Below are positions 8,534 to 45,347 of a stretch of 64,000 nt of DNA, one piece after another. A program made the translations under genes and the position numbers. The notes below the pieces were generated by a model that saw only the letters and a list, made by a program, of their open reading frames with translations, was not told the origin of the DNA and made no database searches. How positions within the stretch are numbered: the stretch's first letter is position 1; the number at the start of each line of letters is the position of its first letter. The DNA is from Candidatus Altiarchaeales archaeon (GTDB lineage Archaea > Altiarchaeota > Altiarchaeia > IMC4 > QMZM01). The stretch spans positions 16,315 to 80,314 of the forward strand of contig JAHEXG010000002.1 of the NCBI GenBank assembly GCA_023252215.1, in the 5' to 3' direction.

Positions 8534-8671
8534 TGCCGAGGGCGGGACTTGAACCCACGACTTCCACGTTTCTCCGCTCCTTTTGTGGCCTTTTGAGTAC
8601 CAATTCAATTTTGTACCCTGTCGGGTACGGGCTTATGAGCGTGGCACTCTAACCAGCTGAGCTACCTCGGC
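8534..8671 (-). tRNA. tRNA-Met(CAU) (elongator or Ile2-type) with about 64-nt intron after position 37
   Basis: Manual fold of the reverse complement gives acceptor GCCGAGG/CCUCGGC, D-arm GCUC-AGCUGGUUA-GAGU, anticodon stem CCACG, loop CUCAUA[intron]A, T-arm GUGGG-UUCAAGU-CCCGC, discriminator A. No CCA encoded. Confidence 0.7.
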
Positions 8672-9022: not shown

Positions 9023-9095
9023 GCCCTGATAGTGTAGCGGCCTATCATGCAAGCCTGTCGAGTTTGCGACTCGGGTTCGAATCCCGATCGGGGCG
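9023..9095 (+). tRNA. tRNA-Asp(GUC)
   Basis: 73 nt. Acceptor GCCCUGA/UCGGGGC, anticodon loop CUGUCGA, T-loop UUCGAAU, discriminator G. No intron. Confidence 0.85.
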
Positions 9096-33528: not shown

Positions 33529-33563
33529 CGATAAAGAATCGGATTACGGGATTAAATAAAGCC

Positions 33564-36500
33564 TTAGACATTCATGGTCACAGTTCTGGTCTCCGTTGTT
33601 CCAGATCCTCCCGCAGTCTTGTTCGCTGAGAAATAATAGCTGGATTTGCCGTTCTCAAGCCCTGTCAGATTCCCGTAGAACCGCCATTCTGTGGAACTGT
33701 ATTTCTGCAGCTCCGACTGGTAGAACATGGATATTTCCTTCTGGGAGAGAGCCCTGTTGTATATCCTCACCTCATCTATCAAGCCTTTAAAGTTCCTTCC
33801 TGATATGCCTGAGCCTATTTTAACAGTGCTGCAGGGAGTAATGCTTGAGAACGCGGTTGTTGCATAGCCCGCTACGGATCCGTCCTGATAGAGCGTGAGG
33901 TTCCCGGACTTCGCAGTTATAGCTATGTGCCTCCATACTCCTGTCGGCGTCTGCGCGATTATAGGCAGGTTTATCCCTCCGCTGCTTGTGAATACTGCCA
34001 TGTTACCAATCGCATTAAGCTGCATGTGGACCATACAGCTGTCAGGGGTTCCGACTATAGACTGGAATGTTCCGGTGGTCGCATTCACGTTCACCCAGGC
34101 GATCACCGTGAGCTCGGCTGCGCCGCCCAGCGTACCGTTGACATCGACCTGATCATCCACACCATCGAAGAACATAGCTCCGTTATATTTACCGGATCTT
34201 GACCAGACGGCACCGGATATGTTGCCAACGTGTCCCTTCGAGGAGACGTCCCCAACCTTTGTCGCGCTGTCGCCTGCGGCCGATATGTTGTTGAAGTTAT
34301 AGGCCAATGCAAGAGAGCCATCAAGCACCCTATACGTAGTCCCGTTCCAGTACAGGGAGAGTCCGGATATTGCTGCAGTATTTGACACGTTTACTTGAGC
34401 AAAGCTGCGGTTTATCGTCGCACCATTAGTCTCAGTCGGTGTCTTGAAAGATAACAAGGCAAGAGTAGTTGTTGTCGTGGTCGTCGTGGTAACAAGTGTT
34501 CCGACGTTATTCTGTTCGGCGCCGAATACCGTCTGAGGTTCTGGGAAAACATATTCGGCTACGTAGAGGTCATCCCACCGATTATTGTCAACCGATGCCT
34601 CTGAGCCGCCGGTCTTACCGAGAGACACAAATCCGCTCTTGTAGGGCCATGCAAAGGTATTCCTCTTGGTTCCGTTGAAATACAGGCTCATGTTAGTCCC
34701 GTCGAAACGGAAGCCTTCCATGAACCAGCGGTCCTGCACCGGAACATACTGTCCAAAGCTTGCGGACCCATTGAATCCGGAATAATAACCAATATTGTTA
34801 TTCGGATCACCATGGTGGAAGAACGCAGCATCCAGCGGCCAGACCTGATTTGGAGCAACTCTCCAAAGACCAGTCTGCGCAGTCTCCCCGCCAGTATTAT
34901 CCTCCGCATTCCAGGACTTCACTCCCACAAGATAAGGCTTAGAAATGTTCAAGCCTATTGGAGCCTTTGAAAGATTCAGATAGACATAAGCGTAGCCGTT
35001 CATGCAAGTCTGATAGCCGCTCTCCCCACACTCAGGAGTCTCCAAATAGCCGTTGGCCTCATTGATAGACGCCTCGCTCTGAAGCTTTGTCCAAGCGGAA
35101 TTGACTACACCATCATTAAAGTCATCGAAGAAAAGGAATGTCTTGCTGCCATTGCTCTGAGATACGGCAGAAGCATTGCCGTAGAACAACCAAAGCTGAG
35201 TCCCGTTTTTAGTATTCAAAGAGTCGGCTTTAATCCAAACCTCTGCCCACGAACCGTTATTTACATTCTCTACCCAGTAAGGCAGTGCAGTCGATCCGTT
35301 GCGATTCACGAACCTTAGATCAGAGAAGTCCGGCTTCATGTCACTGTCGTATGTGACTTTAAAGAAAAGACCGAGGTTGGTTGCGTTTTTTGCCACGCTG
35401 ATGTTCACAGGAACGCGCTTGGCAAAGCCGGGGAGGACGGAAGCTGACTGAGTCGTGGTGGTTGTTGTAGTTGTAGTGGTCGTGGTAGTTCTTGTAGTGG
35501 AAGTAGTTGTTGTGGTAGTAGTTGTAGTGGTTGTCATTGTAGTGGTCGTGGTAGTCATTGTAGTGGTCGTGGTAGTCATTGTAGTGGTCGTGGTAGTCAT
35601 TGTAGTGGTCGTGGTAGTCATTGTAGTGGTCGTGGTAGTCGTCGTAGTGGTCGTACCAACGCGAACCGTCCGTACTCCATTGTCTGTCTGCGCCTTGTTC
35701 CCGGCAGAATCATTCGCCCACGCGTAATAAGTATACGTCCCAACGCCCAGATTCGACAGGTTACAATAGAACCGATACTCAGTCGAATTATACTTCTGCA
35801 CCTCAGACTGATAATGAAACCACACCTCCTGCGCAGAAAGCTTGCGACGGTATATGCGCAGTTCGTCTATGCTGCCATTCATGGTCCCTCCGTCAACCCG
35901 CGAACCGACTGTAAGAGCTGCGGCGCTCTTTATGCCGTTACTCCCCAGGTTGTCCGCGTCCACTTCGGTCGCGACGCTCACGCCATTGAAATACATCTGC
36001 GGGCTGCCATCCCCACCGTAGGCAATCGCTACATGATACCAAGTATTCAGCGGAATCGTGCTAACAGACCTCTTAGACATCCTCGAGGTGAACCAGTTAT
36101 TGATCAGCTCCAGATAAATCTTGCCGTCGGCGAAGATCTCCACGCCGTAACCCATATATGGATCGGAATTCATCTTTGCCACTATCGGAGAATGCGCCGT
36201 CGTCCTCCTGTAGACCCAGGCCTCGAAAGAGAACGAATCAGTCCGGTCAAAACTCGTGCTATCCGACGTAGGAACAGTCACAACGTCATTGTATCCGTCA
36301 AAGGATACTGCTTTGCCGTACTTTCCTCCGACGAACGCAGGACACTTGCCGCCCGCCAGGTCGCACGATCCATTGTTCTTGTACTTTGAAGCGTCCACGA
36401 AACGAATCGAGGATTCGCCGAGGGCAGTGTTGTTGTTGAAGCCCTGCGCAAGCACCAGATCCTTGTCGTATACACTGTAATTGACACCATTCCAGTTGAA

Positions 36501-39500
36501 CCACATTGAGTCCAAAACATTGCCTGAACCAGGAGACACGCTCACGTTAAAGACGGCTCCGTTCGGACTGACCTGACTGTTATTGACAGGGGTCGGAGAG
36601 CGGAAAACGACACCGATCAATGTGGTCGCCAGAGTCGTCGAGGTAGTCGTCGTGGTAGACGTTGTAGTGGTCGTACCAACGCGAACCGTCCGTACTCCAT
36701 TGTCTGTCTGCGCCTTGTTCCCGGCAGAATCATTCGCCCACGCGTAATAAGTATACGTCCCAACGCCCAGATTCGACAGGTTACAATAGAACCGATACTC
36801 AGTCGAATTATACTTCTGCACCTCAGACTGATAATGAAACCACACCTCCTGCGCAGAAAGCTTGCGTCTATAGACCCGGACCTCGTCGATCGAACCGTTT
36901 ATAGTCCCCCCGTCGACCCTCGAACCTATGGTGAAAGGAGCGGAACTCTTGATGCTGCTAGACCCCAGCGTATCGAAAACTGTGTCCACACCCACGCTTA
37001 CGCCGTTGAAATACATCTGCGGGCTGCCATCGCCGCCATACGTAACAGCGACGTGATACCACGTATTCACCGGGATTATAGCAGCAGACCTCTTGATCAA
37101 GCGGGTTCTGAACCAATTATAGATCAGCTCAAAAGACAGCCGATCAGAATTGATCTCAAAACCGTAGCCCGTATAAGGATCAGAGGACATCTTTGCAAGG
37201 ATAGGAACAGACAAAGACGACCTGCGATAGACCCATGCCTCGAAAGAGAACGAATCGGTCCGCTCAAAATTCAGGCTCTCAGAATTCGGGACAGTCACAA
37301 CATCGTTTGAGCCGTCAAAAGACAGGGCGGAGCCGAACCTTCCGGAAACGTATGATGGGCATTTCCCCCCTGCAAGGTCGCATGAACCATTATTCCCCTG
37401 CCCGGAAACATCGACAAATAGAGTTGACGACTCGCCGATGCGAGTATTTCCATTAAAGGACTGACCAAGAACAAGATCCTTGTCATAAATGCTGTAGTTG
37501 ACCCCGTTCCAGTTGAACCTCAGGGAGTCAAGGGTCCTGCCCGAACCCGTGGACAGGCTCACATTAAGGACGGCTCCGTTCGGACCCACAAGGCTGTTGT
37601 TGGAAGGAGTGGGGGAACGAAAAGAGACACTGATCAAGGTGGCTGGCAGGGTCGTCGTGGTTGTAGTTGTTGTGCATGAAGTTCGACAAATACCATCACT
37701 GCACATAATCCCGTTTGTTCCACAGGCTTGCCAAGCACCCCATTTACCGATGTCGCAGGAGCAATAACGCACTTGCATCCCAGGACAACCATTAGCCGCG
37801 ATGCAGTTTTTTGTGTCCATTCCTCTCGCATCCGGCCAGCAGTAGGAACATTCTGCGCCGATCACCGTCACAATACCATCAGATTCTGTAATCGCCGCTT
37901 CATTTCCATATTCAAAATTTATTTCAGAATCCGTCAAGTCCAAAATAACGTTCCCTGGAGAAATCGCCATAAAAGTTACAACCGACAGAGCGGTTCCTGC
38001 ACTAGCCTTAGGCTCAAGGCATGCAAAATCGATCCCAACGACACCTGGCTTATTTGCAGAGACGTTGTAGCGCGAGCTGCAAGATGAGAGATAATCGCCT
38101 GACGAAACGCCAGTAACATTCAGTACTGATGAATTGTAATATAATCTGAAACTATATCCATAGATACCATCAAGAGGCGTCGATGCGATCTGCACCGTAA
38201 AGATATCATTTACTTTGACTTGACTAGCAGATGGAACTGCGCTTATAGTCGCTGAAGGGCCCTCAAAAGACTTGAGACCCAGTTTAGTGGTCTTAGCTTG
38301 ATTCGTGGCACTTGAAACGCTTTTCCCGGTTCCGTAGCTTGTAGAAAGAGTGAGCAGATCACCGTAATTCACGTATCCATTCTCATCAAAGTCGGAACGG
38401 ATATCATAGTTCTGCTGGCCTTTATTTGAACCGTATGCCGTAGCAAGAATCAATAGATCGGAGTAATCCACCTTATTATCTCGATTAGCATCTCCTGCGA
38501 GGCCGCCGATTGGATCGCAAACATCGCCTATGTAATTGTGATTATAGTCCATCTGGCCAGGATTACGGTCAAAGGGACAATTATCGTTTTTATCGAATAC
38601 GCCATCGTTGTCGTCGTCGCAGTCATAATAATCGGCATTTCCATCGCCATCGCTATCCCTTTTGGCTGAAAGGCGGAATTCTCCAGAACCAGAATCCATA
38701 TCAACTTCTATGTAATACGTCCCCGAATTGCTGATAACGCAACTCTCAGTTTCTGAACCAATAGTCCTACTTGTACAGAAAGGCTCGCTACCACAGGCAC
38801 TCGAAACATAGAGATCATAATCTGCACTAGAAGACATGCTCAGGTAAACAACGCCGGGAGAACTAAAACTCACCTTATAAAAACCACGCCATAGGTAATT
38901 TAAATCAGGGGTGTAAGTAGCTTTAACGACGCTATCCGGAGAAATCACTGGCGCGTTTGCGCAATAATAGTCGCCGGCATTTGAGACTGCAGCAGACTCG
39001 GGACAGCCGCTATTGCATTCTGGACCGTATGTTGAAAGGCAAGTATCTCTGCAATCTTTGACTCCATCTCCATCAGAGTCGTACAGACAACTGGGAGTAC
39101 TTAGTATATCCACGACGACGACTGAATATATTTTCGTCGGAATGTCTACGGAGATATAGTCGCCATCGGATTTTGGGATTCCTACAGAATCGCATCGCCG
39201 CCAGAGATTGGTTTTGGTTGTCAAATCAGTCTCTATGTTTTTGCCATCGTAAAGGTCTCCGCTAAGCAGTTTTATCTCTATGTGGTTCGTTTGTGTGTTT
39301 GCGGGGAGTTTGAGTAAAACAGGAGCATAATAAAAACGTGTCAGAGCTTTGCCGCCGTTTTTCTCCTGTACGGCATGAATGACATACCTCTTACCAGTAG
39401 GGCGTAATGGGCTGCTATAGGTTAACACGCCAGTTATGGCCAGATCATAATTAATCCCCGGGTCGGGTATGATTCCATCAGTAGAGGGATAAATCGTGGG

Positions 39501-41516
39501 ATAATTTTTGTATGTATCTGAATTCCGTTCTAAATCAGTTACGGCCATGTTGCTCCTGCCTACAGAATCCAAATTTAGATTTGGATCAGCGAACACATCC
39601 TTGTATCCATTATACATCGTCAGGTAATTTGAAAGATTCGAGACGATAAAATCGGGATTGTTATCTGACGATATTTTTGGATAATTGAATTCATTTATAC
39701 CCCGGTTACTCCAAGTCCATCCAACTATAACGCGAGGATCTCTTTGATCTCCGGTTAGAGGGGGATTATTAAACGGATCTTTGTAATGCCCTGGGCGCAT
39801 AGGTTTAAAGGAGGTATCATACGTTTGCTCGCTCCACAAGATATGACAGCCCTTTTCAGTTTCCCCTATGTCGGAGGTAAACTGGTCTGTGCTCGAACCA
39901 TCCTCAGAAGCAGCTAACGAAGGCCATGGAACAAAATAGTCGGAGGAGAAAAGAGCTTTATCAGCTCCTACACCTTCTTTTAACTGCCCTCTCATATGGC
40001 GTATCATGTTAGCATAGGCGTCTAGAGTAAAAGTGTCATTTACATTTAGTCCAAGATTCGAATTACCTTGACTGTTAAGTTTTATCTTTAAATCAGATGC
40101 ATAATCGCTGTTATACACGCCATAAGGAGTATCACTAGGGTATTCAAGGTGAGATATTCTAGTTGCACAGGTTTCCGCAGAACCAAATTTTATTGGGAGA
40201 TTATATGTTTCACCGCCGAGCGTATTGAGTAAATCGCCGCCCATAACAAGTCTCCCAGTATCGTCTACAAAAAATATGTCAAAATCGTAATTCTTCACAA
40301 GCCAACGAAACTGTTTCACCATATGATAATGATAACTGGGGTCATCAGCCCAATTCTCACCTTCAGACAGATCATCGTCAATTTGTTCCCGAGAAAATCC
40401 AGAACCGTCCTCAGCAGTAACGCCCGTCTTGGACACACCATAAGGAGACGCAGTAACGGCATAAGATATGGGGGTCCCCTCGAGTAAAGTCAATCTTTTA
40501 ACAACACCTGAACTATTTTTTTCAACCCAGCCATCAGCCATTAGGTCTGTTTTAGGATTGGGAGAAAGTTCGCATCCAGGAACATGAACAGGGTCATACA
40601 AACCGATAGGATCCATATAGACAGTTACTTTCATCCCATACCTATGAGCAATATCAGATATCTCTCGTATTTTTTTTCTTGCATCAGTAATCGAATAAAT
40701 GCCTAAAGAATTAAAGTTTCCTCGACGGACAGAAGCAGTCATAGGTGGCGTAGAATAATAGCTATTTCCATCCTCGCTTCCTGGAAACCAGCAGCTTGTT
40801 AATTTATTATTAAAAGGACATTCACAGCTACCTTTTTGGAGTGCGGGTTTAATTGTGCAAGCTTCATCCTCGCCGTAGGAATACCACAAATACGCCAAAT
40901 CTAATACGTTTAGCCCATAGCCGGATGCATACTTGATTACTCGTTCCCATTCGCTCGTCCACATTGAATCGATCTTTCCCTGATCTCCCGCGTAAGGTTT
41001 AAGCTTTTCGAAAATTGTTTCCCAGTCGCTTACGGCAACGTAATAGGTAAGCGTCCTGTAGTCCTTCGAAACCCCGAATTCGTCCACGTAGAACCTAAAT
41101 TCTGAGGAGGTACTATTGAATTTAGCGATAACCTTGAAATTTTGACCTACGAAACTGAACCCGCTGGGGGACTTCCAGGCAGCATAGTTACCGGAATTCC
41201 AAACCATGTTAAAATATTTTGTTTCGCCGGGAGCGACAGAAATGGATTTAGAAAGCTGGCCTACCTGGCTATTACTTCCATTATAAATTAAGAGCTGTAG
41301 AGTACCAGAAGCCGTACTTGAACCACCGTTCTGGATAACGGTTGTAAGGTTAACATCACCCCCAGATTTGAAAACCCGCTCAGGATTCCCTAAAGGGTCG
41401 GTCGTCTCCACCGAAACAACCAACGCAGCTAACGCATTATCAGCTAGAGCTAATATCATCAATCCAAGTATTAAAATTTTGCATAAAGATTTAGCATTGA
41501 CCTTTTTTGTTTTCAT
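33564..41516 (-). CDS. Giant secreted surface protein (2650 aa) with signal peptide, PPC-like domain, thrombospondin-type-3-like Ca-binding repeats, dockerin-like repeats, cohesin-like module, three LamG/concanavalin-like domains, DUF2341-like domain and poly-Thr linkers
   Basis: Signal peptide MKTKKVNAKSLCKILILGLMILALA. Ca-binding repeats DSDGDGNADYYDCDDDNDGVFDKNDNCPFD. Dockerin-like DANRDNKVDYSDLLILATAYG and DENGYVNYGDLLTLSTSYG. Cohesin-like VKVNDIFTVQIASTPLDGIYGYSFRLYYNSSVLNV...VVTFMA. LamG-type units duplicated. DUF2341-like LRFVNRNGSTALPYWVE. Confidence 0.85.
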   Translation of the reverse strand: MKTKKVNAKSLCKILILGLMILALADNALAALVVSVETTDPLGNPERVFKSGGDVNLTTVIQNGGSSTASGTLQLLIYNGSNSQVGQLSKSISVAPGETKYFNMVWNSGNYAAWKSPSGFSFVGQNFKVIAKFNSTSSEFRFYVDEFGVSKDYRTLTYYVAVSDWETIFEKLKPYAGDQGKIDSMWTSEWERVIKYASGYGLNVLDLAYLWYSYGEDEACTIKPALQKGSCECPFNNKLTSCWFPGSEDGNSYYSTPPMTASVRRGNFNSLGIYSITDARKKIREISDIAHRYGMKVTVYMDPIGLYDPVHVPGCELSPNPKTDLMADGWVEKNSSGVVKRLTLLEGTPISYAVTASPYGVSKTGVTAEDGSGFSREQIDDDLSEGENWADDPSYHYHMVKQFRWLVKNYDFDIFFVDDTGRLVMGGDLLNTLGGETYNLPIKFGSAETCATRISHLEYPSDTPYGVYNSDYASDLKIKLNSQGNSNLGLNVNDTFTLDAYANMIRHMRGQLKEGVGADKALFSSDYFVPWPSLAASEDGSSTDQFTSDIGETEKGCHILWSEQTYDTSFKPMRPGHYKDPFNNPPLTGDQRDPRVIVGWTWSNRGINEFNYPKISSDNNPDFIVSNLSNYLTMYNGYKDVFADPNLNLDSVGRSNMAVTDLERNSDTYKNYPTIYPSTDGIIPDPGINYDLAITGVLTYSSPLRPTGKRYVIHAVQEKNGGKALTRFYYAPVLLKLPANTQTNHIEIKLLSGDLYDGKNIETDLTTKTNLWRRCDSVGIPKSDGDYISVDIPTKIYSVVVVDILSTPSCLYDSDGDGVKDCRDTCLSTYGPECNSGCPESAAVSNAGDYYCANAPVISPDSVVKATYTPDLNYLWRGFYKVSFSSPGVVYLSMSSSADYDLYVSSACGSEPFCTSRTIGSETESCVISNSGTYYIEVDMDSGSGEFRLSAKRDSDGDGNADYYDCDDDNDGVFDKNDNCPFDRNPGQMDYNHNYIGDVCDPIGGLAGDANRDNKVDYSDLLILATAYGSNKGQQNYDIRSDFDENGYVNYGDLLTLSTSYGTGKSVSSATNQAKTTKLGLKSFEGPSATISAVPSASQVKVNDIFTVQIASTPLDGIYGYSFRLYYNSSVLNVTGVSSGDYLSSCSSRYNVSANKPGVVGIDFACLEPKASAGTALSVVTFMAISPGNVILDLTDSEINFEYGNEAAITESDGIVTVIGAECSYCWPDARGMDTKNCIAANGCPGMQVRYCSCDIGKWGAWQACGTNGIMCSDGICRTSCTTTTTTTTLPATLISVSFRSPTPSNNSLVGPNGAVLNVSLSTGSGRTLDSLRFNWNGVNYSIYDKDLVLGQSFNGNTRIGESSTLFVDVSGQGNNGSCDLAGGKCPSYVSGRFGSALSFDGSNDVVTVPNSESLNFERTDSFSFEAWVYRRSSLSVPILAKMSSDPYTGYGFEINSDRLSFELIYNWFRTRLIKRSAAIIPVNTWYHVAVTYGGDGSPQMYFNGVSVGVDTVFDTLGSSSIKSSAPFTIGSRVDGGTINGSIDEVRVYRRKLSAQEVWFHYQSEVQKYNSTEYRFYCNLSNLGVGTYTYYAWANDSAGNKAQTDNGVRTVRVGTTTTTSTTTTTSTTLATTLIGVVFRSPTPVNNSQVSPNGAVFNVSVSPGSGNVLDSMWFNWNGVNYSVYDKDLVLAQGFNNNTALGESSIRFVDASKYKNNGSCDLAGGKCPAFVGGKYGKAVSFDGYNDVVTVPTSDSTSFDRTDSFSFEAWVYRRTTAHSPIVAKMNSDPYMGYGVEIFADGKIYLELINNWFTSRMSKRSVSTIPLNTWYHVAIAYGGDGSPQMYFNGVSVATEVDADNLGSNGIKSAAALTVGSRVDGGTMNGSIDELRIYRRKLSAQEVWFHYQSEVQKYNSTEYRFYCNLSNLGVGTYTYYAWANDSAGNKAQTDNGVRTVRVGTTTTTTTTTTTMTTTTTTMTTTTTTMTTTTTTMTTTTTTMTTTTTTTTTTTSTTRTTTTTTTTTTTTTQSASVLPGFAKRVPVNISVAKNATNLGLFFKVTYDSDMKPDFSDLRFVNRNGSTALPYWVENVNNGSWAEVWIKADSLNTKNGTQLWLFYGNASAVSQSNGSKTFLFFDDFNDGVVNSAWTKLQSEASINEANGYLETPECGESGYQTCMNGYAYVYLNLSKAPIGLNISKPYLVGVKSWNAEDNTGGETAQTGLWRVAPNQVWPLDAAFFHHGDPNNNIGYYSGFNGSASFGQYVPVQDRWFMEGFRFDGTNMSLYFNGTKRNTFAWPYKSGFVSLGKTGGSEASVDNNRWDDLYVAEYVFPEPQTVFGAEQNNVGTLVTTTTTTTTTLALLSFKTPTETNGATINRSFAQVNVSNTAAISGLSLYWNGTTYRVLDGSLALAYNFNNISAAGDSATKVGDVSSKGHVGNISGAVWSRSGKYNGAMFFDGVDDQVDVNGTLGGAAELTVIAWVNVNATTGTFQSIVGTPDSCMVHMQLNAIGNMAVFTSSGGINLPIIAQTPTGVWRHIAITAKSGNLTLYQDGSVAGYATTAFSSITPCSTVKIGSGISGRNFKGLIDEVRIYNRALSQKEISMFYQSELQKYSSTEWRFYGNLTGLENGKSSYYFSANKTAGGSGTTETRTVTMNV
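35531..35640 (-). repeat. 21-bp tandem repeat, about 5 copies, inside the giant gene, encoding (TTTTTTM)n linker
   Basis: Unit cattgtagtggtcgtggtagt repeated head-to-tail. In-frame on the reverse strand. Confidence 0.85.
35645..36876 (-). repeat. 1020-bp tandem duplication inside the giant gene; 212-bp blocks (35645-35856 and 36665-36876) are 100% identical, the remainder about 75% identical
   Basis: Direct comparison of the two segments in the sequence. Encodes duplicated LamG-containing units ending ...SAQEVWFHYQSEVQKYNSTEYRFYCNLSNLGVGTYTYYAWANDSAGNKAQTDNGVRTVRVGTTTT. Confidence 0.9.
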
Positions 41517-41737
41517 AAAACACCTCTGAGGAGAGTATTCAGATTTAGACAGAATATAATAGAAAAGACCTTTTCAACAGCTATCAATCCCTTGTCCTTC
41601 CACATAGCAAGCAGTTCCTCCCGGGACGGCACCCGGACTTTTTCATATCTTGCGCAGTATGAGTTGTTTAGAAAGTCAAGGATATAACACTTCTCAGCCG
41701 GAAAAATATTTTCTTGGTTTTTCATTTGGGGAAACAC
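41513..41737 (-). CDS. Small hypothetical protein (74 aa) translationally coupled to the giant gene
   Basis: Stop overlaps the giant gene start (ATGA). AT-rich promoter-like region upstream. Confidence 0.35.
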   Translation of the reverse strand: MFPQMKNQENIFPAEKCYILDFLNNSYCARYEKVRVPSREELLAMWKDKGLIAVEKVFSIIFCLNLNTLLRGVL

Positions 41738-41916
41738 CTCGAATAATTTTCTCCGTTTATACTTGTACAGGCAGAGTATAAAAAGCCCCGTCCAATGTTC
41801 TCTTTAATGATAAATCATGATAAATATTGTATATATGTCATGATAGATTATGATGATTTTGTACTACATTATATAGTTTTATTGATAGCAAAAAAGAATG
41901 ATCGCATAACAGGCCA

Positions 41917-43312
41917 GGTTGTCCCATAATTCTTTGTTTGAATTTGTGTTTGTGTATTTATACTTTCTTTCGTAAATCATTATGCAGAGGCGCATTTGTT
42001 ATGGCTTATATTGATTCTTTTAAGGGTCAGAATTGGCTTCTTCCGCCTAGTATTCGTGATATGATTCCGGGGGCCATGTCTGTTTTTTTGTTGAGGATTT
42101 TGTTGATTCTTTGGATTATTCAGGATTTGATTCTGTTTATGAGGACGCAGAGCATCCTGCTTATCATCCTCGTGTTTTGTTGAAGGTTTTGGTTTAGGGT
42201 ATGATGTGCGGTACTCGTTCTTCCCGGAAGATTGCGCGTGCTGCGCGTGAGAATTTTGTTTTCATGTATTTGGCTGAGCGATTATGTCCTGATATAAGAT
42301 GATTGAGGAGGACAATACCTTGGATGATTTGAAAGATGAATTGTTTGACGGCAGGGAAGAAGGCTTAACCGGCGTTGATAGGCGTGATTTAAAGCGTATT
42401 GTGCGGGAGTACAATGAGAGTGAAAACAAGAAGCGGATTAAGAAAAAAATAGGTAAGGCCAAGACGGAGCTTGAAGAGCATGGTTTGAAGAAGGTTTCTC
42501 TTTCGGATCCTGAGCGTCGCATGATGCAGAATAAGCATGGAGTGAGTGAGTTGTGCTATAATATTCAATTGGGTGTTTCCAGTAATCAGATTGTTTTGTC
42601 TTCTGATGTCTGCCAGGATAAACATGATGCGCATCAGTTTATTCCTCAGATGAACAAGCTGCGGGAAAACGTTGAGCTGCAAAAGAACACAAAAATCGGC
42701 GTGGAATGCGCTTACAGCGACAGGGAAAACATCCATTTTGCGGAGGATAAGGGCTTGGATTTGTATGATCCTTCGAGGGCGCAGACTCAGGAATTAGATT
42801 GCAAGGAACAGAATCTCAATCACGACCATTACGAATATGATGAAAAGCACAATGAGATCATTGTAGATGGAACAAGGTATCGATATCGTGGTCCTTATAC
42901 GAGAAATAAGAGCGGGAGGACGCTTGTCACCTTCTACAATCCGCAGATAAAGAAGAAAAAAGACCGTCCGTCCTATTTTAGGGAGCGTCTTAGAATGAGG
43001 AATAAAATGTCCACACCTGAAGATAGACGGATTTATAATCAGCGTAAGACAAGCGTGGAGCCAGTGTAAGGAAACCTGAAAACCAATCGGGGTTAGGGAA
43101 TTTTTACTGAGAAGAAGGGAAAAAGCAAAGATCGAACTAAATTTAGCGTGTATCGCGCACAATTTGCAGAAAATACATCGAATGATGGGCGAAAAAAGCG
43201 GGGTATTGACCCGAAAAGAGGGACGTTTTTTAATTCAACCCCCCAAAAAAAAAGCTTCAGTACCTCAAAAACCAAAAACGAATTATGGGACAGCCTCAGA
43301 CATTTAAACGCC
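41917..43312 (+). mobile_element. IS1182-family insertion sequence remnant with 16-bp imperfect terminal inverted repeats
   Basis: Left IR GGTTGTCCCATAATTC (41917-41932) and right IR (reverse complement) GGCTGTCCCATAATTC (43280-43295). Internal transposase fragments. Lower GC than flanks. Confidence 0.6.
42001..43312 (+). pseudogene. IS1182-family DDE transposase, inactivated by at least 5 frameshifts
   Basis: N-terminus MAYIDSFKGQNWLLPPSIRDMIP then a frame change. ...VCFFVEDFVDSLDYSGFDSVYEDAEHPAYHPRVLLKVLV and ...RSSRKIARAARENFVFMYLAERLCPDIR lie in other frames. Middle ORF 42299..43069 holds SDPERRMMQNKHG...YNIQLGV...SSDVCQDKHDAHQ. C-terminal FGNLKTNRG / REFLLRRREKAKIELNLACIAHNL is again shifted. 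Confidence 0.65.
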
Positions 43313-43380
43313 CTTTTTATGCATTGAAGCAAATATAATAGTAGTATTACGAAATTGTAAATAGTATTACTGGTGAAAAT

Positions 43381-43674
43381 ATGTGGTTGATAACATCTTT
43401 TGTCGCGGCAATACTCGTGACTGCGTTATGGGCGTATGCTCCGAAGAAATACAAGCTGAGTTTTTTGGCTTTGATGCTCTGGGGGCTTGCAGTGATGATA
43501 CTGGTGGACCATGTGATGGGATACGAAGGCTCGGGCTCGTTCCTTGAAATGGAAACGGAAGGACTTATCGAGAACGGGACGGTTCTCGGTATAGCGATGC
43601 TGATACCCGTATTTATTATATGGGAGATCGCACTAGTAATATCGAAAACAAAGGGGGAGATAACGACGAGGTAA
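43381..43674 (+). CDS. Small membrane protein (paralog A)
   Basis: 97 aa, 3 TM segments. Shares LMLWGLAVMILVDHVMGYEG / LNAMLWGGTAGLALEHVAHGE with the next gene. Confidence 0.5.
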   Translation: MWLITSFVAAILVTALWAYAPKKYKLSFLALMLWGLAVMILVDHVMGYEGSGSFLEMETEGLIENGTVLGIAMLIPVFIIWEIALVISKTKGEITTR

Positions 43675-43680
43675 AAAAAA

Positions 43681-44016
43681 ATGGCATGTTTTAGCGCACC
43701 AACGGCCGTTGCTATTGTTACAACGGCCTGCAGGAAAAAGATACCGGAAAAGTACCACATAAACTGGCTTAACGCGATGCTCTGGGGAGGAACCGCAGGG
43801 CTGGCATTGGAACACGTCGCCCACGGGGAGATAGTGCCCTATTTCCCCTTTCTGACGGCCATGAAGAGCGCACAGGATACCGCAGTCATGTTCCAGGAGA
43901 TATTGACCGTAGGAGTCGGTATGCTTGTCGTCTGTTTGATCGTCTGGGCATTAATGGTGTTCGTTGCCTGGAAATTAGAGGCAAAGGCCAAAAACGTAGT
44001 TACGCAGGCGGTATAA
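43681..44016 (+). CDS. Small membrane protein (paralog B)
   Basis: 111 aa. Paralogous to the preceding gene, 7-nt spacer. Confidence 0.5.
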   Translation: MACFSAPTAVAIVTTACRKKIPEKYHINWLNAMLWGGTAGLALEHVAHGEIVPYFPFLTAMKSAQDTAVMFQEILTVGVGMLVVCLIVWALMVFVAWKLEAKAKNVVTQAV

Positions 44017-44099
44017 GTAAAAAAGTCCGGACGCCGGAGAATCTGTGCGTCAAGCTTCTTCTTTTAACTTTTTATTCGGAAAACGCCTAAGATAAATCC

Positions 44100-45347
44100 A
44101 TGGCTTATCCAAGAGCAAGAACACCGATAGCTTTATCGCTTATACTGTGCGTTCTGCTATTTTTCTGCGGATGCGCAGGCAACAAAGGGACTGCCGTCAC
44201 AACCACCACCCAGTTCATTACCGCGACAACGCTGCCGGTTCAGAATACCCCCGCAGCCTCGTTCGGAGAATACGCCACATTCTACACCCGCATGGTTTAC
44301 GCAGGGAACCTGGGAGGAAAGCCCGCATATATCGTATCAAATGGCAATGTATCGAATGGCAATAAAAAACTCATATTATACGACGGAAAAGAGATAGGAG
44401 CGTCCTATGATCAGGCTCTTATGCCCGCGCTCATCGCCGGAAAATTGTTCTATGCGGGCGTCAAGAATAATAAATACAGCGCAGTATATGACGGACAGGA
44501 AATTGGAAAAGATTTCTTCTCCATCTGGTCTCCCGGCGAATACCTGGGAAAGCCCATCTACGTCGCCGAGAAGATAGGAAAAAGCGTCCTTATTTTTGAC
44601 GGGAACGAAATAAGCAACGCAAGCTACGACTACGTCTGGTCCTATGCAATAATAAACGGCAAGATCGCTTATCTTGCATCAAAGGCAGGGGAGACGTATA
44701 TCGCCAAAAAAATCAACCCCCAGACTTCGGAGTCCAGGAGAGACATCCCGCCAGAGGGGGTGAAATCGGTCATAGTCTATGACGGAAAGGAGTATGGCAG
44801 GGAATATGACACCGTAGGCTTCCCGATGGGTATCAAAGGATCGCTTGCCTTTATCGCTCTCAAAGGCGCTAAAAAATTCACGGTTCTGGGCGGCATGGAG
44901 GGCACGAAATACGACGACATACACGAACCCCTATTATACGATGGGAAGACCGCGTACATAGCCGAGAAAGACGGGAAAAGCTTCCTTGTATACGACGGCG
45001 CGGAGTATAAAGCATACGACCGCATTGACCCAACCTCGTTGAAGAACATCGATGGAAAAATGTCTTACCGGGCCGCTGATCCAACCACCAAAAAAGGAAA
45101 ATACTTCATAGTATATGACGGCGCAGAGATTGGGAAAGACTACGACAACGTCCTCTCATTTGCCGCGTTGTCAGGAAAGCAGGCTTATGTTGCGGATAAT
45201 AAGACAACACGCTCAGTTGTCTACGCCGGCGGGAGCAGCGGGAAAGCATACAGCGCGATTGACCCGGACTCGCTTGCATTCTACGACGGGAAGCTCATGT
45301 TCACGGCCCAGAAAAACGGCGTATGGTACGTCGTATCGGAGGAATAA
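44100..45347 (+). CDS. Lipoprotein with about 9 tandem 36-40-aa repeats (YDGxEIGxxYD periodicity)
   Basis: Signal/lipobox LLFFCGCAG. Repeated K..Y[IV]AEK.GKS.L[IV]YDG.E.G..YD units. Confidence 0.7.
   Translation: MAYPRARTPIALSLILCVLLFFCGCAGNKGTAVTTTTQFITATTLPVQNTPAASFGEYATFYTRMVYAGNLGGKPAYIVSNGNVSNGNKKLILYDGKEIGASYDQALMPALIAGKLFYAGVKNNKYSAVYDGQEIGKDFFSIWSPGEYLGKPIYVAEKIGKSVLIFDGNEISNASYDYVWSYAIINGKIAYLASKAGETYIAKKINPQTSESRRDIPPEGVKSVIVYDGKEYGREYDTVGFPMGIKGSLAFIALKGAKKFTVLGGMEGTKYDDIHEPLLYDGKTAYIAEKDGKSFLVYDGAEYKAYDRIDPTSLKNIDGKMSYRAADPTTKKGKYFIVYDGAEIGKDYDNVLSFAALSGKQAYVADNKTTRSVVYAGGSSGKAYSAIDPDSLAFYDGKLMFTAQKNGVWYVVSEE

Follow-up and report, generated by a model that had tools for sequence, protein, structure and literature searches.

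The segment at positions 41915-43297, plus strand, of the window (the whole 64-kb stretch of DNA analysed here) is very probably what is left of an ordinary IS1182-family insertion sequence, decayed and unable to move by itself, which, to judge from the alignments, died where it had inserted. The remnant is 1383 bp long and can be aligned end to end with intact elements of 1574-1582 bp. The IS1182 family has a size range of 1330-1950 bp (ISfinder); the remnant and its intact relatives are both inside 1.3-1.95 kb. The G+C content of the element is 41.7% compared to 49% for the window. An initial annotation had correctly located an element in this region, at 41917-43312. When a 4-bp target duplication is modelled, the limits are 41915-43297, and positions 43298-43312 are flank.

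Family membership and termini

The assignment to the IS1182 family, made initially by inspection, is borne out by the NCBIfam profile, three Pfam domains and the terminal inverted repeats. The transposase fragments were stitched together to a pseudo-protein of 435 aa. Against NCBIfam transpos_IS1182 (NF033551) this protein scores 206.4 bits (E = 7.8e-61), i.e., it stays under the cut-off of 270 bits because 66 codons are deleted. On the same model P0001, P0004 and P0107, which are intact relatives, reach 324-337 bits, over the cut-off, and their next-best family is IS5 with at most 55 bits. The homology to the IS5 family (transpos_IS5_4) via DDE_Tnp_1 is weak: P0001 has 54.7 bits versus a cut-off of 140, compared to 337 bits on the IS1182 model. 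Domains expected of the IS1182 family are an N-terminal DUF772 followed by DDE_Tnp_1 and DDE_Tnp_1_6; the window fragments match DUF772 (5.8e-09), DDE_Tnp_1_6 (6.9e-12) and DDE_Tnp_1 (1.6e-07). A search of 5.8 billion proteins with the stitched protein returned 728 homologues. The best are uninterrupted, 467-471 aa long and have the same three domains. Two homologues, from Bathyarchaeota and Nanoarchaeota, are named IS1182 family transposase by NCBI. By these comparisons membership in the IS1182 family appears secure by descent, via intact relatives up to about 85% identical.

The archaeal clade to which the remnant belongs shares with the IS1182 family a single DDE transposase of about 470 aa with the same domains, terminal inverted repeats and a size of about 1.57 kb when intact; its intact members also have short target duplications and an apparent preference for palindromic targets. 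The window copy differs from the family: it is dead, has 1383 bp and five ORF fragments, and its catalytic residues are lost.

The left terminal inverted repeat, CAGGTTGTCCCATAATTC, is at 41915-41932 (plus strand), and an imperfect repeat runs on to 41946. It is the same as the left end of the intact elements in L001-L004. The right terminal inverted repeat, at 43280-43297 (minus strand), is GAATTATGGGACAGCCTC in plus-strand reading, same as the right end of the intact L005 element. The 18-bp termini match in 16 of 18 positions. The 16-bp inverted repeats that had been noted at the outset are present: GGTTGTCCCATAATTC at 41917-41932 has its inverse, with one mismatch, at 43280-43295. With a repeat finder the pair grows to 31 nt of 81% complementarity (41916-41946 versus 43266-43296). 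In a shuffle control, two or more matches at up to 3 mismatches occurred in 8 of 100 shuffles; on shuffles alone a chance pair is thus possible. The inverted repeats are genuine because the same termini, identical or nearly so, bound intact relatives on unrelated contigs (L001-L007). No further copy of the terminal repeat was found in the 64-kb window at up to 3 mismatches.

The broken transposase

To place the lesions, the remnant was aligned with its relatives as protein, and as DNA with the intact copies in L001, L004 and L005. Three frame changes and two in-frame stops break the transposase into five collinear fragments, which are spread over three reading frames. The earlier count of at least five frames holds for the number of broken pieces, but alignment and three-frame translation resolve only three reading frames. 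All fragments are on the plus strand. Fragment 1 (42001-42072), MAYIDSFKGQNWLLPPSIRDMIPG, ends at a 1-bp deletion at about 42069-42074, in the codon after IPG. Fragment 2 (42075-42197; HVCFFVED...LKVLV, the DUF772 region) ends at an in-frame TAG at 42195-42197 which is TAT (Tyr) in the relatives. Fragment 3 (42198-42293; GMMCGTRSSRK...AERLCPD) is followed by a 199-bp deletion after 42293. This takes out 66 codons including the invariant SIDG(S/T)MLKA segment with the IDG(S/T) motif, the presumed place of the first catalytic Asp. Fragment 4 (42299-43069) is the longest surviving ORF with 256 aa (P0018) and ends at a TAA at 43067-43069, again a TAT (Tyr) in the relatives. Fragment 5 (43070-43214; GNLKTNRG / VREFLLRRREKAKIELNLACIAHNLQKIHRMMGEKSGVLT) holds the YREK-type Glu region and is identical in two other assemblies, L010 and L011. 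It carries a 2-bp deletion after 43088, and the native stop is lost by a change from TGA to CGA at 43212-43214. Small non-coding insertions comprise 3 bp at 41993, 5 bp in a C6A9 run at 43239-43253 and 1 bp at 43267.

The peptides by which the transposase had been recognized were recovered in a three-frame translation: MAYIDSFKGQNWLLPPSIRDMIPG from 42001, SLSDPERRMMQNKHG...DKHDAHQ in the ORF 42299-43069 and REFLLRRREKAKIELNLACIAHNL from about 43095. The peptide given as FGNLKTNRG in fact reads V(stop)GNLKTNRG(stop); the TAA stop replaces the Tyr of the relatives.

Two invariant Asp and the Glu of Y-x2-R-x4-E-x6-K (IYNQRKTSVEPVYGNLK) form what we take to be the catalytic triad, from the motifs of the IS4/IS5/IS1182 DDE group. 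The putative assignment combines invariant alignment columns with this motif knowledge; a search for a solved structure on which to map catalytic residues found none. In the remnant the DDE triad is not intact. The region of the first Asp is deleted. The second, the invariant Asp of G(V/L)D(C/S)(A/G)YSD, is changed to Glu by GAT to GAA at 42704-42706, a position with Asp in all intact relatives. The Glu region is cut off by the TAA and the 2-bp deletion. To judge from these lesions, an active transposase cannot be made from the remnant. In a codon-position test 44 of 96 lineage-specific changes in the window are at positions 1 and 2 (46%), versus 22 of 63 for L001 (35%). The excess on the window lineage is in the direction expected for relaxed selection, and is not significant (p = 0.19).

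Decay or sequencing error

The initial annotation had cautioned that several breaks are in homopolymer runs and could be sequencing errors. One may go further and suppose an active insertion sequence whose seeming breaks result from faulty sequencing or assembly or from programmed frameshifting. The sequence comes from a metagenome-assembled genome and the two small deletions adjoin G runs (about 42069-42073 and 43089-43092), as such a supposition would have it; the other lesions are of a different kind. The 199-bp deletion, the two nonsense codons, the Asp to Glu exchange and the lost stop cannot be homopolymer errors. In the relatives the ORF is single and uninterrupted, so no programmed frameshift is expected.

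At the individual sites under suspicion, a loss of 1 bp in or adjoining a G5 run is confirmed near 42075, but the T7 run there is the same as in the relatives. No lesion exists at about 42165, the nearest being the TAG substitution at 42195. The break at about 42290 is the 199-bp deletion rather than a slip, and that at about 43068 is the TAA substitution, not a homopolymer change. At about 43098 a 2-bp loss adjoining a G4 run is real, but its place is after 43088.

Two other assemblies, located through the neighbouring 97-aa protein, carry identical 3' lesions and for this reason decay is favoured over sequencing error. L010 (Logan assembly of SRR14366796) agrees with the window at every position of 42891-45345 (100% identity). 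L011 (ENA ERZ27279977) is the same as the window throughout 42483-43297, and all its differences lie outside the element, i.e., an A9/A8 run at 43673 and a SNP at 43891. The 3' lesions are thus reproduced exactly; the 5' lesions (1-bp deletion, TAG and 199-bp deletion) are seen in the window assembly alone. Together with the nature of the lesions, the identity of 42483-43297 in two assemblies largely excludes the homopolymer explanation, and an active element is extremely unlikely. The A9 run occupies 43665-43673, between the 97-aa and 111-aa genes, and is A8 in L011; this is the sole homopolymer length difference between the assemblies.

Mobility in trans

Because its terminal repeats are still intact, the decayed remnant would be at most non-autonomous and movable by a related transposase in trans; otherwise it would be inert DNA. 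A stronger variant is that of a MITE-like derivative which still moves because an intact sister copy at another place in the genome supplies transposase in trans. Both terminal repeats are the same as those of intact elements, and a high load of insertion sequences is reported for Altiarchaeota, with the highest median content of any archaeal phylum (PMC13343696). On the other hand, the 64-kb window has neither a second copy nor another terminal-repeat match, nor a second match to a transposase. The 256-aa product is a singleton cluster, and another copy which shares the 199-bp deletion was not found. The closest intact transposase among 5.8 billion proteins is about 85% identical, and the 37% G+C of its contig flanks suggests a different organism. 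We therefore consider a mobilised MITE-like derivative quite unlikely and retain the reading as a dead remnant.

The locus and its neighbours

Proteins encoded in the window fall into clusters of at least 90% identity with those of a 'Candidatus Altiarchaeia archaeon' genome, e.g., topoisomerase I MFZ2455143.1. The element sits between divergent operons. On the minus strand these are a small gene and a giant surface-protein gene, on the plus strand small membrane-protein genes. Three syntenic loci, L012, L014 and L015, were reached through homologues of the downstream 415-aa protein. Their order is MetRS - NifU - 283 aa - (65-72-aa gene) // 97 aa - 111 aa - 411 aa - NikR-like. According to BLASTN the window differs from them by two insertions, the giant gene (33559-41512) and the element segment. 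The element is missing from all three. Homology with the syntenic loci extends on the left up to about 41882-41897 and resumes on the right from about 43308-43311. The element-free relatives have at this place a segment of about 200 bp instead, which includes a small gene paralogous to the ~70-aa one. Because of this segment with its paralogous ORF more than a simple insertion took place, and the site history appears to comprise loss or replacement of the ~200-bp segment as well as insertion.

The giant gene has 8 kb and encodes 2650 aa with three Laminin_G_3 domains, DUF2341, cohesin and dockerin-like domains. It is absent from the three syntenic relatives, in which the 283-aa and the 65-72-aa genes are about 40-70 bp apart. 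It constitutes a strain-specific one-gene indel and is not flanked by insertion-sequence ends. A composite transposon formed by the element and the giant gene was considered and rejected: the window has no other terminal repeat (up to 3 mismatches) or transposase match, and a conserved small gene with its promoter block (41513-41882) stands between the two. This ~70-aa gene (41516-41725, minus strand) overlaps the start codon of the giant gene and has no Pfam match. It possesses a conserved motif, MKNQENIFPxxKCYIFD...YCxRYEKVRxPSREELLALWKD. In the relatives it is found at 1253-1450 and 1606-1758 of L012 and at 8552-8770 of L014; the second paralogue is shorter and located exactly at the place of the element.

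The initial annotation had proposed that the element could influence expression of the giant surface-protein operon. The element lies 190 bp upstream of the small gene heading this operon, 399 bp from the giant gene's ATG and 84 bp upstream of the 97-aa gene. The proximity to both operons may invite the thought that the remnant was co-opted, either to supply or block regulatory signals for the giant or the membrane-protein operon, or with its 256-aa ORF as a domesticated protein. Beside both divergent genes, the blocks that element-free relatives have conserved (41738-41882 and 43311-43380) are nevertheless intact; by eye they hold candidate TATA-like and SD-like sequences. Because these promoter-proximal blocks are untouched, the proposed influence is speculative and unsupported. 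As to domestication, the 256-aa ORF is devoid of both catalytic Asp and of the Glu region, and it has no close homologues of its own length. Co-option in either form is very unlikely.

Further features of the window may be recorded. Shortly before the 97-aa gene, at 43343-43374, there is a direct repeat of TAGTATTAC with 23 bp spacing, which has been conserved in L012, L014 and L015. It could be an operator; the operons of the relatives end in a NikR-like gene. Two tRNA genes are at 8534-8671 (minus strand) and 9023-9095 (plus strand). The former probably contains an intron because it spans 138 nt.

Target site

The ends of the elements were taken as N-AGGYTGTCCC...GGGACAGCNT-C. With the ends so defined, a perfect direct repeat of 4 bp adjoins the element on both sides in six independent insertions of relatives: CTGT (L001), GTCT (left end of L004 and right end of L002), AAGG (L005), GGCT (L007), CGCT (L139) and CCCT (L137). 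Beyond the repeats the flanks of the relatives form a quasi-palindrome with the consensus C.YWTAAY-N4-GTTATRCG.

In the window the layout is CGCATAAC-AGGC-[41915-43297]-AGAC-a-TTTAAACG. The left half of the putative target, CGCATAAC at 41903-41910, fits the left-flank consensus C.YWTAAY. AGGC at 41911-41914 would be the left copy of the target-site duplication; its position is set by the perfect duplications of the six relatives. The right copy, AGAC at 43298-43301, has one mismatch (3/4 identical). A decayed right half, TTTAAACG at 43303-43310, is tentative and fits GTTATRCG in 6 of 8 positions after an offset of 1 nt (all plus strand). This signature, weak by itself, is consistent with an old insertion. 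A search of the window for uninterrupted target palindromes, with up to 3 mismatches allowed, found none. With 4 matches versus 3.0 expected, the window shows no enrichment of the half-site CGYATAAC.

Some IS1182 members target palindromes or stem-loops, among them IS1272 of Staphylococcus, which inserts at inverted-repeat/stem-loop targets and for which one modelled pathway duplicates the hairpin loop only (PMC5678879). Similar to this loop pathway, the archaeal relatives have a duplicated 4-bp spacer between two half-sites. IS1272 is reported to replace the stem-loop without a duplication, and its targets share no sequence. In contrast, the archaeal relatives keep both half-sites, a 4-bp duplication and a sequence consensus. 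The apparent palindromic target preference of the clade rests on about seven insertions. One might picture the archaeal IS1182 clade as specific for the sequence C.YWTAAY-N4-GTTATRCG, inserting site-specifically with duplication of the loop, and the window copy as perhaps mobilisable in trans. As a whole we regard this picture as unlikely.

Several insertion sites of the relatives have in common hairpin-like, G+C-rich motifs such as GAGCCGAAGGCGAGC, GCCTGCAAGGC and CCGAAGGGAG, which are outside the half-sites. They occur in L001 (1440-1512 and 3087-3150), L002, L004, L006 and L139, and are absent from the window flanks. The targets of the relatives may thus lie within a family of short repeated structured elements. 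No Rfam families were detected at the insertion sites of the window and of six loci of relatives.

Relatives and origin

Members of the archaeal clade are present in Bathyarchaeota, Micrarchaeota, Woesearchaeota, Nanoarchaeota and an Altiarchaeia-like genome. A search of genome contigs with P0001 gave matches in four archaeal genomes, among which the genome of the window itself does not figure. When metagenomes were scanned with a 15-mer of the terminal repeat nearly all of the matches listed were chance, and at least three real copies were added. Over aligned columns, the remnant and the L001 element are about 81% identical at the DNA level. The flanks of the closest intact relatives have 37-40% G+C. 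As the element has 41.7% and the window 49%, this composition suggests that it was acquired from a lower-G+C archaeon. ISfinder names follow from at least 95% amino-acid or at least 90% DNA identity to a registered insertion sequence; we do not assign the archaeal clade of this remnant to a named ISfinder element.

Contigs carrying the same transposase (L001/L002/L004 and L136/L137/L139/L143) pair differing left and right flanks, e.g., L001 versus L002, and the contigs with P0107 display all four combinations of two left with two right flanks. Such mixed flanks either are chimeras that arose when repeated copies of the insertion sequence were assembled or stem from true recombination between the copies.

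Proposed course and implications

The following course would account for the observations. An IS1182-family element would have entered a divergent intergenic region of an Altiarchaeia-like archaeon. By analogy with the relatives, its DDE transposase would have linked the ends of the element to cuts with a 4-bp stagger in the middle of a quasi-palindromic target, and the insertion would have duplicated the 4-bp spacer. Decay followed, as the alignment shows: two small frameshifting deletions, two nonsense mutations, the 199-bp deletion, the exchange of Asp for Glu and the loss of the stop.

For annotation it follows that the label for 41915-43297 should be IS1182-family remnant or pseudogene, and that the 256-aa ORF (42299-43069) should not be called a hypothetical protein. 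IS1182 is already among the listed archaeal insertion-sequence families, and the element is a degraded further member. The remnant opens no long-standing question; it is real but unremarkable. It flags a site of variation in an Altiarchaeia locus that is syntenic elsewhere, and adds one further data point on the spread and the palindromic target preference of the archaeal IS1182 clade. Of mild interest besides is that the palindromic target of this clade appears to be sequence-specific, with duplication of the loop.
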